In this document: positions 6,341 to 54,317 of the stretch, piece after piece
Layout of the letters: the number at the start of each line of letters is the position of its first letter
Position numbering within the stretch: the stretch's first letter is position 1
Origin: an uncultured Candidatus Saccharibacteria bacterium
GTDB lineage: Bacteria > Patescibacteriota > Minisyncoccia > 2-02-FULL-40-12 > GWA2-44-9
NCBI GenBank assembly: GCA_964356795.1
Contig: CAYHIK010000005.1
Coordinates: 10,767 to 74,766 of the forward strand
Reading direction: 5' to 3'
Length of the DNA: 64,000 nucleotides
The notes under the pieces: model-generated
Database searches by the model: none
Seen by the model: the letters and a program-made list of their open reading frames with translations, nothing else
What the model was told of the DNA's origin: nothing
Made by a program: the position numbers and the translations under genes

Positions 6341-6981
6341 TGCGGAGAGGGTGGGATTCGCCCTCAATTCTTTCGGAAAAAATTTGGGGGCTATCCATAA
6401 AAACTAATTCAGTTTTGAGTAAACTATCTTAAGCATTTCTTGCGGAGATAATTTACTACTATCAATTATACAAAAGTCGTCAAAAGATTTCGACTGCTGT
6501 GCTTTGAAGGTGAAGTCGAAACGATTTTTGTCAAAATCTTTACCCCTGCTTTCGTCTCGCTCCTTCACTCGTGAATGTAATACATCATAAGGTGCAATGA
6601 GAGAAAACTTGTGGAATTGAACACCATACTCATTTGAAATCATTTCGAGCCTTTTCAAGCGTTCTTCTGAAATGCCACTATCAATTACAGCATTTTTATT
6701 TTGCTCAAAAACTCCTTTCAATTTTTCAGTTATAATCTCAAACGCTCTTTTGTTGTCGCTATCTATCGAATCGGTTCTTTCAAGAAGTTTTCTCTCATTG
6801 TCCAAACTGAAAAATTCTGTATTAGAAAGATTGTTTTTGAGCAATTCTGAAAGTGTAGATTTTCCTGAACCTTTTGGCCCATCAAGAAGAATTAGATAGT
6901 TTTTCATATTAAACTTTCAATATTTCTAGTTCTCATATAACTTTTCGTGCAACTCTCTATTTGCGGAGAGGGTGGGATTCG
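6341..6981 (-). mobile_element. tRNA-associated integrated islet: a ~600 bp AT-rich (~30% GC) segment carrying a P-loop kinase gene, bounded by 20-bp direct repeats of the tRNA 3' end (att-like).
   Basis: tgcggagagggtgggattcg occurs at 6341-6360 and again at 6962-6981 (the 3' end of the tRNA at 6964-7050). GC content of the intervening DNA is far below the window average. Confidence 0.55.
6404..6907 (-). CDS. P-loop NTPase / small-molecule kinase-like protein (Walker A GPKGSGKST).
   Basis: N-terminal Walker A motif followed by a kinase-like architecture; very low GC and AT-rich codon usage relative to neighbours. Confidence 0.6.
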   Translation of the reverse strand: MKNYLILLDGPKGSGKSTLSELLKNNLSNTEFFSLDNERKLLERTDSIDSDNKRAFEIITEKLKGVFEQNKNAVIDSGISEERLKRLEMISNEYGVQFHKFSLIAPYDVLHSRVKERDESRGKDFDKNRFDFTFKAQQSKSFDDFCIIDSSKLSPQEMLKIVYSKLN

Positions 6982-7050
6982 AACCCACGAGACTCGTGAG
7001 AGTCCGGCGGTTTAGTAAACCGCTGCTTTCAACCACTCAGCCACCTCTCC
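6964..7050 (-). tRNA. Type II (Ser-like) tRNA with anticodon loop TTACTAA, formally anticodon ACU (A34); discriminator G73.
   Basis: Acceptor GGAGAGG/CCTCTCC, D-arm GCT...AGC, anticodon stem GCGGT/ACCGC, 18-nt variable arm (GGACTC-TCAC-GAGTCT), T-arm GTGGG-TTCGAAT-CCCAC. Aligns position-by-position with bacterial tRNA-Ser but has A rather than G at position 34. Confidence 0.7.
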
Positions 7051-8550: not shown

Positions 8551-8642
8551 TGGCGGAGGCGGGAGGATTCGAACCTCCGAGGGGTTTTGAAGCCCCTGCC
8601 TCTTTAGCAAAGAGGTACATTAGACCACTCTGACACGCCTCC
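8551..8642 (-). tRNA. tRNA-Ser (anticodon GCU), type II, with encoded CCA.
   Basis: Acceptor GGAGGCG/CGCCTCC, anticodon stem CCTCT/AGAGG with loop TTGCTAA, long variable arm CAGGGGCTTCAAAACCCCTC, T-arm GGAGG-TTCGAAT-CCTCC, G73, CCA. Confidence 0.85.
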
Positions 8643-14965: not shown

Positions 14966-15463
14966 ATGGTAAACGTAACTGATATCATGCATCGTCGGCG
15001 CTTGGGTTGGCAGAAAGGGTTTACCCTTGTGGAGTTGCTGGTGGTTATTGCCATCATCGGCGTACTCGCCACACTCGTATTGTTGCAGCTAGGAACCGCA
15101 CGTGGACGTGCTCGCGATACGAAGCGCATCACGGACGTGAACCAAATCCGCAGTGCTGTTGAACAGTATTTTGAGGATAATGGCGGCAAGTACCCAGCAG
15201 CAGCAGCATGGGAGACGGATATCGCGGGCTACATGACGCGCGTTCCGAAGGACCCCTTGTCGGATGTATCGTATGACTACAACGTAGATCCGACATTTCA
15301 GGCATTTCAGATTGTTGCGGAGCTTGAGAATAAGGCGGCGGCTCTCACCAATGATTCCGATATCGTATCAGGTGACTTTACTGGTGCAGTTGATGCGGGA
15401 GCGGCAAACGAAACATGTGCTGATCCTGCAACATGTCTCTATGACCAAGGTGTAAAGCTATAG
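14966..15463 (+). CDS. pilA: Type IV major pilin (prepilin with class III signal peptide).
   Basis: Prepilin motif ...GWQKG|FTLVELLVVIAIIGVLA with Glu5; a strong upstream promoter (TTGCAC...TGtATATAAT) and a downstream terminator. An alternative ATG exists at 14987. Confidence 0.85.
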   Translation: MVNVTDIMHRRRLGWQKGFTLVELLVVIAIIGVLATLVLLQLGTARGRARDTKRITDVNQIRSAVEQYFEDNGGKYPAAAAWETDIAGYMTRVPKDPLSDVSYDYNVDPTFQAFQIVAELENKAAALTNDSDIVSGDFTGAVDAGAANETCADPATCLYDQGVKL

Positions 15464-15474
15464 GCTTTGCAGAA

Positions 15475-15506
15475 CAGAAGACCCGCTTCGGCGGGTCTTC
15501 TGTTAT
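15475..15506 (+). terminator. Rho-independent terminator after the pilin gene.
   Basis: CAGAAGACCCGC-ttcg-GCGGGTCTTCTG followed by a T-rich stretch. Confidence 0.55.
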
Positions 15507-15514
15507 AATGGGGT

Positions 15515-50269: not shown

Positions 50270-50692
50270 ATGGCAAAGAAAGTAAAAACAATAGTAAAGC
50301 TGCAAGTCGAAGGTGCTCGTGCAACGCCAGCGCCACCAGTGGGTGCCGCACTTGGACCGCACGGTATTAACTTGCAGCAGTTCGTACTTCAGTTCAATGA
50401 AGCTACCAAGGACAAGGCTGGCCAGGTGACTCCGGTTGAGATTACGATTTACGAAGATCGTACATTCGAATTCAAGCTGAAGACTCCTCCCGCAGCATAC
50501 CTCCTCCGTGTAGCCGCAGGATTGGAGAAGGGAAGCGGAGAGCCCAACAAAAAGAAAGTTGGCACCGTGACCAAAGAACAGCTTCGCAAAATCGCTGAGC
50601 AGAAGATGGAAGACCTCAATGCCAACGACGTCGAAGCCGCGATGCTCATCATCGGCGGTACAGCCCGCTCCATGGGAATCGAGATTAAGTAA
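50270..50692 (+). CDS. rplK: 50S ribosomal protein L11.
   Basis: [34 protein letters not shown] conserved N-terminus. Confidence 0.9.
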
Positions 50693-50712
50693 AGAATTGC
50701 CCCTGTGCAAAA

Positions 50713-50739
50713 CCCCTCCTTGTGGAGGGGTTTTGCTTT
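50713..50739 (+). terminator. Rho-independent terminator directly after rplK.
   Basis: CCCCTCC-ttgt-GGAGGGG stem followed by TTTTGCTTT. Confidence 0.6.
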
Positions 50740-50778
50740 GCTATGCTGATGGTCCAGTTCTTTTTTGTGGAGGCGAAA

Positions 50779-51417
50779 ATGTTCATCTTGTTCGAAGGAC
50801 AAGAGGGTGTCGGCAAGACAACGATTGCGAGGCGATTCGTCGAAGCATTGACGGTGCTTGGTATTACGCCCCTTGCGGTTCGTGAGCCCGGGGGTACCGA
50901 GGCTGGTGCGGCGATTCGTGAAGTTCTGCTGAATCCTACGAGCAAGCTGACAGCACTCGCAGAGTTCTTCCTGCTTCAGGCATCACGGGCACAGTTGCTG
51001 AAGGAAAGGGTTGAGCCAGAGCTCTTCCGTGGTGGCGTCGTCGTGATGGATCGCTACTCGCTTTCGACGCTGGCATATCAAGTCGCGGGCCGCGGGCTTC
51101 CGTTGGCCCCTGTGCTCTCGACGTTGGACTTCGCTACCGGTCGCCTCATTCCCGACATCACGATTCTGCTGACGGCAAGCGTTGATGTGGGGCACGCTCG
51201 TCAGGCACAGATGAAGAAGGTGGCAGACAGGTTCGAGGCCGAAGAGGAGGCGTTCCATCAGCGGGTGCACGATGGGTACCGTTCGTTTGCGGCCGTATTG
51301 CCCAAGTGGAATATCAGGACCATCGACACTAACTCGCTGAGCGAGGATGAAGTGTATTGGCGTGTGGTGCAGGAAATTGCCAAAGTCTGGCAGCCAGCGA
51401 TGAAGCTGGTGCGGTGA
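50779..51417 (+). CDS. tmk: Thymidylate kinase.
   Basis: P-loop FEGQEGVGKTT, DRY-like motif DRYSLS and lid region. Trimmed to ATG 50779, which has GGAGG 8 nt upstream. Confidence 0.85.
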   Translation: MFILFEGQEGVGKTTIARRFVEALTVLGITPLAVREPGGTEAGAAIREVLLNPTSKLTALAEFFLLQASRAQLLKERVEPELFRGGVVVMDRYSLSTLAYQVAGRGLPLAPVLSTLDFATGRLIPDITILLTASVDVGHARQAQMKKVADRFEAEEEAFHQRVHDGYRSFAAVLPKWNIRTIDTNSLSEDEVYWRVVQEIAKVWQPAMKLVR

Positions 51418-51475: not shown

Positions 51476-52942
51476 ATGACTGAATACAGCACCACCATTG
51501 GACTTGAGATACATGCGGAGCTCAACACGAACACAAAGATGTTTTGTGATTGTGCGAATGATTCACTCGAGAAGACGCCAAATATGAACGTATGTCCCGT
51601 GTGTATGGCGCATCCAGGTGCGCTACCCGTGATGAACCGTGCGGCAATTCAGAAGATTGTCGCGGTTGGCCTTGCACTCGGATGTTCTATTGAGAAGGCA
51701 TCATTCTTTGAGCGTAAGAATTATTTTTACCCCGACCTTCCGAAGGGGTATCAAATCTCCCAATTTCAGGTGCCGTTTTGTCGTGAAGGCTCGCTGACCG
51801 TGAATGGGAAAAAGATTCGTATCGAGCGCATTCATATGGAAGAAGACGCCGGGAAGTTGATGCATGAACCAGGGAGTGATTATTCGCTCGCAGACTACAA
51901 CCGCGCAGGTGTTCCATTGATGGAGCTGGTGACGCACCCTGATTTATCAGAAGCAGAAGACGTGCGTCGATTCGCGACAGAGCTCCAGCTCATCCTTCGC
52001 TACCTTAAAGCATCAGATGCGGATATGGAAAAAGGCCAGATGCGCGTCGAGGTAAACCTCTCTATCCGTCCGAAGGGGCAAAAAGAATACGGCACCAAGG
52101 TTGAGGTGAAGAATATTAACTCTATTTCTGCTGCGGCAAAGTCAGCTGACTATGAAGTGAAGAGACAGATGGACGTCCTTGAGTCTGGTGGCGCACTCGT
52201 GCAAGAAACACGTGGCTGGGATGATGTGAATCAAAAGACGGTAAGTCAGCGCGTAAAGGAGGGAAGCGCTGATTATCGATACTTCCCAGAACCCGACCTT
52301 CCGCCCGTCGTTCTTACCGATGAAGAGATAGAAGCGATTCGCGCTTCACTTCCCGAGCTTCCCGCAGCCCGTCGTGAGCGATTCGTGCGTGAATATGGAG
52401 TCCCTGCGGCTGACGTAGAGATTCTCACGGTGTTTAAAGAATTAGGAGATTATTTTGAAATGGTGGTTTCGGAATTAAGATCAGAGCATAATCCCATTAC
52501 AGGTGAGGCGGCTGATTACGGAAAACTCGCGAAGACGGCGGCGAACTGGCTTATCACGCAGCTTCAGCCAAAACTTTTTGCGGTGTCTGCGAATCCACAG
52601 GATACCAAAATCACCCCCGCGCTCTTTGCTGACTTCGTGGTACGCGTCGCATCAGGGCAGATTGGAAGCACTGCTGCGCAAACAGTGTTGCAGGAGATGT
52701 GGGAGACGGGCGAGGATCCCGAGGACATCATCAAAGCAAAAGACCTCGCACAGGTATCTGATTCGGTTTCATTGAATGTATTCGTGGAAGATGCGATTGC
52801 GCAATCGGAGCGGGCTGTGGCCGATTTCAAGGCTGGCAAAGAGCCCGCACTCAAAGCAATCGTCGGCAAGGCGATGATGCTCTCCAAGGGCAAGGCAAAC
52901 CCGCAATCTGTGGAGCAACTCCTCCGAGAGAAGCTAAAGTAG
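51476..52942 (+). CDS. gatB: Asp/Glu-tRNA amidotransferase subunit B.
   Basis: N-terminal GLEIHAELNT...KMFC.C and the overall GatB/YqeY architecture. Confidence 0.9.
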   Translation: MTEYSTTIGLEIHAELNTNTKMFCDCANDSLEKTPNMNVCPVCMAHPGALPVMNRAAIQKIVAVGLALGCSIEKASFFERKNYFYPDLPKGYQISQFQVPFCREGSLTVNGKKIRIERIHMEEDAGKLMHEPGSDYSLADYNRAGVPLMELVTHPDLSEAEDVRRFATELQLILRYLKASDADMEKGQMRVEVNLSIRPKGQKEYGTKVEVKNINSISAAAKSADYEVKRQMDVLESGGALVQETRGWDDVNQKTVSQRVKEGSADYRYFPEPDLPPVVLTDEEIEAIRASLPELPAARRERFVREYGVPAADVEILTVFKELGDYFEMVVSELRSEHNPITGEAADYGKLAKTAANWLITQLQPKLFAVSANPQDTKITPALFADFVVRVASGQIGSTAAQTVLQEMWETGEDPEDIIKAKDLAQVSDSVSLNVFVEDAIAQSERAVADFKAGKEPALKAIVGKAMMLSKGKANPQSVEQLLREKLK

Positions 52943-52944
52943 CT

Positions 52945-53383
52945 TCTTCATCGCATTGGCGGAATGCCTTTGTTCGGTACGACTATCGCTCGCTGGTGCG
53001 AGCGCGTCTCACCCTCGGCTCGTCAGCCTGCGAGAGCCCTCCCAAAGGCACTCCGCCACTGCTCTTCAGTCTCTCGTTTTTCTCTGGGAGGAATCTTTTG
53101 CCGGCGTACCTTTACGAGGACTTTCGGAGGCCGACTGGGCCGAGAACGAGACGGCCCGCCAGTAAGGCGGGAACGTCGTGCCGAGTAGGGGTATGCCGGC
53201 GGAAAGATTCCTAATGTGTGGCTGTGGATAACTTTTATTGAACTTAGCTGCGAGGGGCGTAGGGTGTAGGTGGGATTCAGAAGACGGAAGGTCAGCCGTA
53301 AGGGGAAGCCGATAGTGTGCAACAAAACTATATTGCTTCTGGGTCCCACACAAAGAACCACGCTCGTGGCTCTTTGTGTTTTT
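52945..53383 (+). ncRNA. Candidate ~430-nt noncoding structured RNA region (no plausible ORF) ending in a strong intrinsic terminator; identity unassigned.
   Basis: All ORFs in this region are short and low-complexity. Several local hairpins are present (CCCGCC-agtaa-GGCGGG; CTCGC-tggt-GCGAG), with long-range complementarity GGAATCTTTT-GCCGGC ... GCCGGC-GGAAAGATTCC spanning ~130 nt. Terminator CACAAAGAaCCACG..CGTGGcTCTTTGTG+TTTTT at 53349-53383. Confidence 0.25.
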
Positions 53384-54317
53384 ATAGGGAATTTTCTACA
53401 CGCCTCACCGCATCTTCTGCTGTCTTAACCCACTGAATGTCTTTGTTTTTGCGCCACCAGGTGAGCTGGCGTTTGGCGTAGGCGATGATGTCGTGGAGAA
53501 GTGCGGTGCGCATTTCGGTGCGTGTGATGTTGCGCTGCAGGAATCGTGCGACCCAGCGATACTCAAGTCCGAATCCTTCGAGTCGTTTCCAGCTTACGCC
53601 GTTGGCACGGAGTTCTTTGATTTCAGCTATCATGCCGATGCGGAGGCGCGCATCGAGGCGTTTTTCAATGCGAGTTTTCAACTCATCCATGGGGCGAGAG
53701 ACGCCGAGATACAGAAGTTCGTAGCTCGTAGCTGGCAGGCGGATAGGGGGGACGGGTTTGCCTGTAGTCATGACAATCTCTAGCGCACGAATGAGTCGTA
53801 CATGATTATGACGATCAATTGAGCGGGCACGAGCTGGGTCGAGTTTTTTGAGTTTAGAAAAAAGTTGGGGTGCGGAGAATTTTTGGAGTTGCGCTCGGAG
53901 CTTTGCATTCGGTTTTACTTCTGGGATTGATTGCCCGTATACAAGCGCATCAATCCAGAATCCTGTGCCACCGCAAATGATTGGAGTCTTACCGCGTCGT
54001 GTGATATCGCGAATTGCCTTTTTGGCATCGCGCACGAAATGGGCCACCGTGTATTGGCGCGTAGGGGAGGCGACGTCGAGGAGCCAGTGTCGCGCGAGTT
54101 TTTGCTCGCGCTTGGTAACTTTTCCGGTACCGATATCCATGCCACGGTAAACCTGCCGGGAATCGGCGGAAATGATTTCGCCATTGCAGTTTCGAGCAAT
54201 CTGAATTGCCATATCTGATTTTCCAGATGCGGTCGGCCCAGATACTACAATAAGTTTTACTTTTTTGCCTTCTTTACCTTTTTGCATAAGCGTGGCATAG
54301 TATAGCTCTTCGTTCAT
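53382..54317 (-). CDS. miaA: tRNA dimethylallyltransferase.
   Basis: P-loop VVSGPTASGKS and the conserved ISADSRQVYRGMDIGT motif. Confidence 0.9.
   Translation of the reverse strand: MNEELYYATLMQKGKEGKKVKLIVVSGPTASGKSDMAIQIARNCNGEIISADSRQVYRGMDIGTGKVTKREQKLARHWLLDVASPTRQYTVAHFVRDAKKAIRDITRRGKTPIICGGTGFWIDALVYGQSIPEVKPNAKLRAQLQKFSAPQLFSKLKKLDPARARSIDRHNHVRLIRALEIVMTTGKPVPPIRLPATSYELLYLGVSRPMDELKTRIEKRLDARLRIGMIAEIKELRANGVSWKRLEGFGLEYRWVARFLQRNITRTEMRTALLHDIIAYAKRQLTWWRKNKDIQWVKTAEDAVRRVENSL

Follow-up and report, generated by a model that had tools for sequence, protein, structure and literature searches.

The window analysed here is a stretch of 64,000 nucleotides from an uncultured bacterium. 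The source genome belongs to Patescibacteria (CPR) and is close to Candidatus Yanofskybacteria: in a protein search, the relatives of the gatB product were 80-87% identical, and some of them are named Yanofskybacteria or Paceibacterota in their sources. The local gene order is gyrB-secE-nusG-rplK-tmk-gatB on the plus strand, an intergenic gap, miaA on the minus strand, a conserved hypothetical gene of 199 aa on the plus strand and thrS on the minus strand. The gap and its borders are as follows:

51476-52942, plus strand: gatB, a 488-aa ORF whose homologs carry Pfam GatB_N/GatB_Yqey, the last gene of the gyrB-secE-nusG-rplK-tmk-gatB run
52940-52942, plus strand: gatB stop codon TAG, 5' border of the gap
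52943-53381: gatB-miaA gap of about 440 bases, lying between the two stops of convergent genes
53382-54317, minus strand: miaA, a 311-aa ORF whose homologs carry Pfam IPPT, convergent to gatB

Two further features of the neighbourhood were observed. At 50270-51417, rplK (L11) leads to tmk and gatB rather than to rplA (L1)-rplJ-rplL, and the same arrangement is present in all relatives fetched (L081-L098). This order may relate to the L1-lacking subgroup of Parcubacteria, and rplA could be located elsewhere. In addition, a tRNA-Ser with a long variable arm was called at 6963-7050 on the minus strand; its anticodon loop is UUACUAA and its anticodon is ACU with A34, and a normal tRNA-Ser(GCU) is also present at 8551-8642. 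A34 is unusual in bacteria outside tRNA-Arg(ACG).

The gap region holds far more structure than expected by chance. The plus-strand fold of 443 nt has a free energy of -196.6 kcal/mol, against -160 ± 5.9 for shuffled sequences (z = -6.2), and the minus-strand fold reaches -176.5 kcal/mol (z = -6.65 against shuffles). The initial annotation had described an ORF-free, highly structured region behind gatB, which agrees with these values of z about -6. ORFs do occur here, of 69-74 aa in all three plus frames and of 95-112 aa on the minus strand, the shortest mechanical ORF that overlaps the gap having 52 aa (53270-53428; overall range 52-112 aa), but none of them is conserved in the relatives.

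No known RNA family was recognized in the gap. Rfam 15 at gathering thresholds returned six tRNAs only from the whole 64 kb, and ARAGORN on the window likewise found six tRNAs and no tmRNA. At E ≤ 10, both a query of 701 nt (52800-53500) and one of 129 nt gave just chance-level miRNA and leader matches on the terminator hairpin. RNase P RNA, tmRNA, 6S, SRP and 5S RNA are thus all absent from the gap by Rfam 15 and ARAGORN, and the suggestion that the size fits RNase P RNA, tmRNA or another housekeeping RNA found no backing. Searches of the gap region against the rest of the window by nhmmer and blastn detected no other copy; the region matched solely its own reverse complement.

To compare the locus among relatives, syntenic loci (L081-L098) were obtained by a gatB protein search and contig look-ups. 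Only the part at about 53215-53400 of the window is conserved, and it aligns to L084, L086, L088, L089, L092, L094 and L095. After identical sequences were collapsed (L086 = L087 = L093; L095 = L096-L098), eight distinct homologs remained, including the window. In L086, L088 and L092 the whole gatB-miaA spacer is about 155 nt and consists of this unit alone, which we call element A. On the other hand, the 5' part of the gap, about 270 nt, aligns to L084 only and is inverted there. The gap is not one unit, because relatives keep its 3' part of about 160 nt alone. We therefore favour, with somewhat better than even confidence, the view that two unrelated structured elements make up the gap, element A in its 3' part and a second one, element B, in its 5' part.

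The presence of element A at this locus is patchy. L081, L082, L083, L085, L090 and L091 hold other content and no homolog of element A at the locus, and L081, L082, L083 and L085 are closer relatives (gatB 84-87% identical). Element A is either dispensable or located elsewhere in such organisms. Protein genes at this site in relatives had been named as evidence that would speak against an RNA; several relatives do carry protein genes in the gap, but the 3' unit is kept in eight distinct sequences. A gatB scan of genome contigs gave, among the matches listed, a best relative of 54% identity that has no homolog of the gap region. A metagenome pattern scan for element A returned three loci from a collection that evidently lacks some JGI samples, L084 fitting the pattern yet not being among them, so that absence from this collection is uninformative. 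Neither element A nor element B was matched in viral contigs or in phage and plasmid collections. A covariance model built from element A (R1) scored 127.8 bits on the window; it also gave a weak match at 15446-15507 on the plus strand (19 bits, E about 0.03), probably a mere terminator-like hairpin.

The gap also behaves as a variable hotspot in L081, L082, L083, L085, L089, L084 and L095. Its contents include ORFs of 98-100 aa (one of them weakly MazG-like), a ParE/YafQ toxin pair with its neighbours, a His_Phos_1 gene, and ORFs of 131, 157 and 216 aa without Pfam hits. In L094 (1-1807), a short contig, the homolog of element A lies outside the gatB-miaA context, adjoins an IS30-like (integrase-core) transposase ORF (11-757) and is flanked by long perfect hairpins, such as GCCCCTGAACGGCTCATATGG/CCATATGAGCCGTTCAGGG.

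Element B is a structured element of about 120 nt, of which two diverged, oppositely oriented copies occupy the 5' part of the gap:

52950-53068, sense strand minus: element B copy D, R2 model score 131 bits on the minus strand, MFE -65.7 (minus) vs -57.1 (plus)
53089-53212, sense strand plus: element B copy I, R2 model score 116.6 bits on the plus strand, MFE -76.3 (plus, z = -7.65) vs -58.7 (minus)

The relationship of the copies was evident from nhmmer, which matched this 5' part with the reverse complement of itself (E = 3.4e-10). A third copy is present once in L084, in opposite orientation, and absent from the other relatives: by BLAST, L084 4475-4593 is 82% identical to 53115-53185 of copy I on the opposite strand and 68% identical to 52968-53041 of copy D on the same strand. 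The fold consists of a closing stem of 20-27 bp around the core GAGGACUUUCGGAG, a 4-bp hairpin, GAGAACGAGACG, a 6-7-bp hairpin and GUCGUGCYGAG. The long-range complementary pair pointed out in the initial annotation is real; its arms, GGAATCTTTTGCCGGC (53090-53105) and GCCGGCGGAAAGATTCC (53195-53211), close a 27-bp helix in the MFE fold, which is the closing stem of copy I. This pair and the GC-rich hairpins had been taken as parts of the same RNA as the terminator, but they belong to element B and are not conserved at the site in most relatives.

Among the three copies, the closing stems have no common sequence and their pairing is kept, and the core is conserved. There are 41 pairs, of which 18 are doubly changed. 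The MFE differences between strands (9-18 kcal/mol) agree in all three copies, favouring the plus strand for copy I and the minus strand for copy D and the L084 copy, and the R2 model, built from the three copies, scored 106-131 bits on these predicted sense strands only. Element B appears to be a second strand-specific structured element, which this lineage would have gained by insertion or duplication. Candidates for its nature are a diverged mobile palindrome, a stabiliser of the 3' UTR and a strand-specific RNA/ssDNA element. A 6-bp direct repeat, TCTTCA (52945-52950 and 53063-53068), flanks copy D and is either a target-site duplication or due to chance. We also considered copy I as an inverton and rejected this, as its flanking repeats are not common with L084 and no recombinase is nearby.

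A selfish repeat is an alternative for element B. It might be an ordinary MITE- or ERIC-like imperfect palindrome whose structure simply reflects terminal inverted repeats, which we regard as possible but rather doubtful. The size of about 120 bp, the occurrence in either orientation relative to flanking genes with two copies adjoining, the location in an intergenic hotspot where accessory genes accumulate as well, and the possible TCTTCA repeat, found around copy D only, are all in line with such an origin. However, terminal inverted repeats conserved among copies, as expected of a MITE, were not found; the closing stems diverge and stay paired around a retained core, contrary to what a recent MITE burst would leave. 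The ratio of 14 G-U to 3 C-A cells indicates a strand, and two copies were found in the 64 kb and one in L084, the R2 model detecting no further one in the window or 28 related loci.

Element A, the conserved part of the gap, is a predicted sRNA with the following anatomy:

53223-53383, plus strand: self-contained sRNA gene including the promoter-like signal, about 160 nt
53223-53231, plus strand: upstream box TGTGGATAA, an exact DnaA-box 9-mer in reverse orientation
53238-53243, plus strand: -35-like hexamer TTGAAC, TTGAC(C/G) in six of eight homologs
53260-53265, plus strand: -10-like hexamer TAGGGT (TAnnnT), with T1, A2 and T6 invariant and the middle three positions variable in all eight homologs
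53270-53383, plus strand: element A, predicted sRNA of about 112 nt, from the R1 model and eight distinct homologs
53270-53349, plus strand: three-way-junction core, from the RNAalifold consensus, pair counts and independent MFE folds
53270-53283 with 53336-53349, plus strand: P1, closing helix of 14 bp
53290-53292/53308-53310 and 53296-53297/53302-53303, plus strand: P2, a 3-bp helix, an internal loop and a 2-bp helix
53298-53301, plus strand: P2 tetraloop GUAA, GUAA in seven homologs and GCAA in L088 (GYAA)
53312-53316/53327-53331, plus strand: P3, 5 bp
53317-53326, plus strand: 10-nt loop of P3, GUGCAACAAA, conserved as GUGYAAYARR
53350-53383, plus strand: intrinsic terminator, stem 53350-53361/53366-53377, loop GCUC, U5 at 53379-53383

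We hold this anatomy with high confidence. Its 35 pairs give 280 cells in the eight homologs, 98.6% of which are standard pairs, and eight pairs (21 cells) are altered on both sides, so that the covariation expected of a genuine RNA was indeed found across relatives. The covariation score was 0.364 against 0.225 ± 0.017 for shuffled alignments and was reached by none of 500 shuffles, a statistic that is inflated by shared ancestry since the homologs are 70-94% pairwise identical and form a narrow clade. When the partner was slid by 1-3 columns, pairing fell to 34-50%. The same helices appear in single-sequence MFE folds of L084 and L086, and in three homologs in all. G-U pairs account for 41 of the 280 cells, and element A was assigned to the plus strand because these would be lost on the opposite one.

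Conservation within the element is uneven. The two arms are 21 and 20 nt long, and the P2 tetraloop is closed by C-G and C-G/U-G pairs. Invariant features include the junction purines (GAA and AAGGGRAAGC) and the GYAA class of the tetraloop, and the 10-nt loop is largely conserved. In P1, the middle covaries freely and the G-C pairs near the outer end are invariant. Inspection of the conserved motifs as k-turn, hammerhead, twister or T-loop gave no fit.

The plus-strand terminator that had been noted at the end of the region is real as a hairpin with T5 at 53379-53383, but its stem has 11 bp with an A-C mismatch instead of 14 perfect pairs. The mismatch is invariant, the loop is 4 nt, the sequence is conserved and all (100%) of the pair cells are paired in the eight homologs. 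As in an intrinsic terminator, the U-tract comes immediately after a hairpin containing G+C, on the transcribed strand; a simple terminator scan did not list it. The hairpin abuts or overlaps the convergent miaA stop, the overlap being 13 nt in L086 and L088.

Upstream of the RNA, the conservation pattern TTGAC-N16-18-TAnnnT, seen in all eight homologs, suggests a putative sigma-70-type promoter for element A. The spacer between the two hexamers is 16-18 nt (16 nt in the window) and not conserved in sequence; the -10-like hexamer matches three of six consensus positions and the site was not flagged in a consensus promoter scan. Placing the start 4-7 nt past TAnnnT, we infer the 5' end in the window at 53270-53273. 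Six nucleotides upstream of the -35-like hexamer lies the box TGTGGATAA, the reverse complement of TTATCCACA, which has a single exact copy in the 64 kb and is kept as GTGNAYAA in all eight homologs. In L095, a separate terminator occurs directly upstream of the box, which argues for independent transcription of element A. Two other explanations of this region were rejected: a DnaA-box cluster or origin, given that there is one exact box and the GC skew is monotonic across the window, and a longer RNA with a covarying hairpin between TTGAC and TAnnnT, given that such a hairpin is missing from L092 and that invariance coincides exactly with positions 1, 2 and 6 of the -10. The proposal of a plus-strand ncRNA thus stands in that the RNA would end at the noted terminator and covaries in relatives, but it would be about 112 nt long instead of about 430 nt and would start from its own promoter-like signal inside the region.

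Taken together, element A is a predicted sRNA family absent from Rfam and restricted to a narrow Yanofskybacteria-like CPR group. The promoter-like signal would drive a structured transcript of about 112 nt that stops at the terminator on the miaA stop codon. Where element A directly adjoins gatB, no terminator separates the two, and the mRNA of the gatB operon would have element A as its 3' end as well. Element A would then be an sRNA of the 3'-UTR type that has an internal promoter of its own. The RNA may act in trans, its compact fold being bound by a protein or another partner; we judge such a partner-binding role and cis roles to be at roughly even odds. The partner would recognise the junction purines, which are invariant, together with the 10-nt loop, and not a linear antisense seed; sequences complementary to the loop occur 8 times in the window against 5.4 expected, which is no enrichment. 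Docking of the GYAA loop on the tandem G-C pairs of P1, which are invariant as well, is probable; this docking and the trans role are both proposed from the general behaviour of RNAs. The hairpin of element A probably also terminates miaA transcription.

Element A could also be a cis device as such, either a bidirectional terminator and antisense partner of the miaA 3' end or a riboswitch-like aptamer with a terminator that controls read-through. In the window, L086, L088, L092 and L095, the terminator does abut or overlap the miaA stop, and a P1-closed junction with a terminator right behind it is reminiscent of transcriptional OFF switches. However, there is mostly no downstream gene on the same strand to be controlled: in these five loci the convergent miaA comes next, and a plus-strand ORF follows in L084 only. 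Moreover, other genes or hairpins lie between element A and miaA in L084, L089 and L094, the 14-bp P1 is too stable to switch, we saw no conserved alternative pairing that involves the terminator, and a covarying three-way junction would not be needed for an antisense role. We consider either form of cis device unlikely.

Two bolder readings, which we would offer only as long shots, are that element A is a lineage-specific, radically reduced SRP-type or other housekeeping RNP RNA of Parcubacteria of the L1-lacking type, in which the hairpin resembling SRP domain IV would genuinely bind a protein, and that element B is a new kind of strand-specific, structure-conserved mobile RNA/ssDNA element with an orientation that flips between genomes.

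Element A might be a highly reduced or divergent universal RNP RNA, with SRP RNA as the most plausible candidate. It has a GNRA-capped short helix beside an internal loop, flanked by a G-C/G-C/U-G helix; its size, promoter-like signal and terminator are those usual for ffs genes; and no canonical SRP RNA is present in the 64-kb window, though such a window would rarely hold one. Against this, the Bacteria_small_SRP and large_SRP models were silent on the 129-nt query at E ≤ 10 and on L092/L094 at E ≤ 1, element A varies at internal-loop positions where SRP RNA is nearly invariant (column 28 C/G, column 30 G/C/A), the core is a three-way junction and not the single extended hairpin of domain IV, and close relatives lack element A at the locus. 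This makes an SRP RNA quite improbable. A search of the literature on CPR sRNAs and on peculiarities of SRP or 5S RNA found nothing relevant.

Even less credible is that the whole region of about 430 nt is one large, divergent housekeeping RNA (RNase P RNA, tmRNA, 6S or similar): size, strong structure and a terminator at the end would fit, but there is no Rfam match at gathering thresholds or at E ≤ 10 and no ARAGORN tmRNA, L086, L088 and L092 keep just the 3' unit in about 155 nt, and the separate element B, in two inverted copies, accounts for the 5' part. Finally, we give next to no credence to a small protein encoded by the 3' unit with a decayed gene as the 5' part, for which gene-caller ORFs over the unit in some assemblies (L084 4414-4800) and the 52-aa ORF of the window might speak, since element A is non-coding because of a 1-nt indel that separates the window, L094 and L095 from the other homologs, so that the frame is not conserved, and of one to four stops in nearly every plus frame of each homolog, and its helix substitutions are compensatory.

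CPR/Patescibacteria genomes are tiny and tightly packed, and to our knowledge almost nothing is known about their ncRNAs beyond rRNA, tRNA and the universal RNPs. Element A, backed by covariation and without an Rfam family, offers a testable entry to RNA-based regulation in these uncultivated symbionts, and the R1 covariance model is directly usable to chart its distribution. The locus also illustrates that a mosaic can underlie a long structured gap, in this case apparently of a conserved sRNA and diverged inverted copies of another structured element. The weight of the finding is modest because the family is narrow; it would rise only if element A were a housekeeping RNP RNA or element B a new mobile RNA element, and an RNP RNA in the case of element A, or a mobile RNA/ssDNA element in that of element B, would, if true, constitute a new CPR RNA class.

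Several known systems invite comparison. ERIC/IRU, Correia and RUP elements are imperfect palindromes of 100-150 bp in transcribed intergenic regions, and element B resembles them in size, long closing stem, occurrence in both orientations and intergenic site downstream of an operon. Unlike them, it is known in three copies, its stems covary and it shows a clear strand polarity.

Among the housekeeping RNAs, the likeness to RNase P RNA, tmRNA and 6S is limited to the size of the gap and the terminator. RNaseP_bact_a/b had no match at gathering thresholds in the window or at E ≤ 10 in 52800-53500, and instead of one unit of about 330-400 nt the relatives keep only about 160 nt. The 6S models in Rfam also had no match, and the consensus of element A is a three-way junction, whereas 6S RNA forms a long helix interrupted by a central bubble. 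The 5S_rRNA model gave nothing at E ≤ 10 on the 129-nt query, and the arms of 21 and 20 nt do not have the normal size of the 5S helix II-III and IV-V domains; local strings of element A are similar to E. coli 5S (CAGAAG..GCCGUA..GCCGAU..AGUGUG) and fall in non-equivalent structural positions, so that 5S rRNA was rejected. The parallel to SRP RNA is closer. P2 of element A reads GGU-CAG-CC-GUAA-GG-GGAA-GCC, and domain IV of E. coli 4.5S RNA, GGU-CAGG-UCC-GGAA-GGA-AGCA-GCC, has the same succession of G-C/G-C/U-G helix, internal loop, 2-bp helix and GNRA tetraloop. Element A differs in its extra hairpin, three-way junction, variable loop residues and patchy presence among close relatives.

Some bacterial sRNAs of intergenic or 3'-UTR origin, for example type I 3'-UTR sRNAs such as DapZ and MicL, have their own promoter and a Rho-independent terminator. 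Element A is distinct from these in that it is conserved in a covarying three-way junction and not in a single-stranded seed and that its host has a reduced CPR genome. It shares with them a promoter-like signal just past or inside the end of the upstream operon, a predicted structured product of about 110 nt and, where it abuts gatB, a terminator common with the upstream mRNA.
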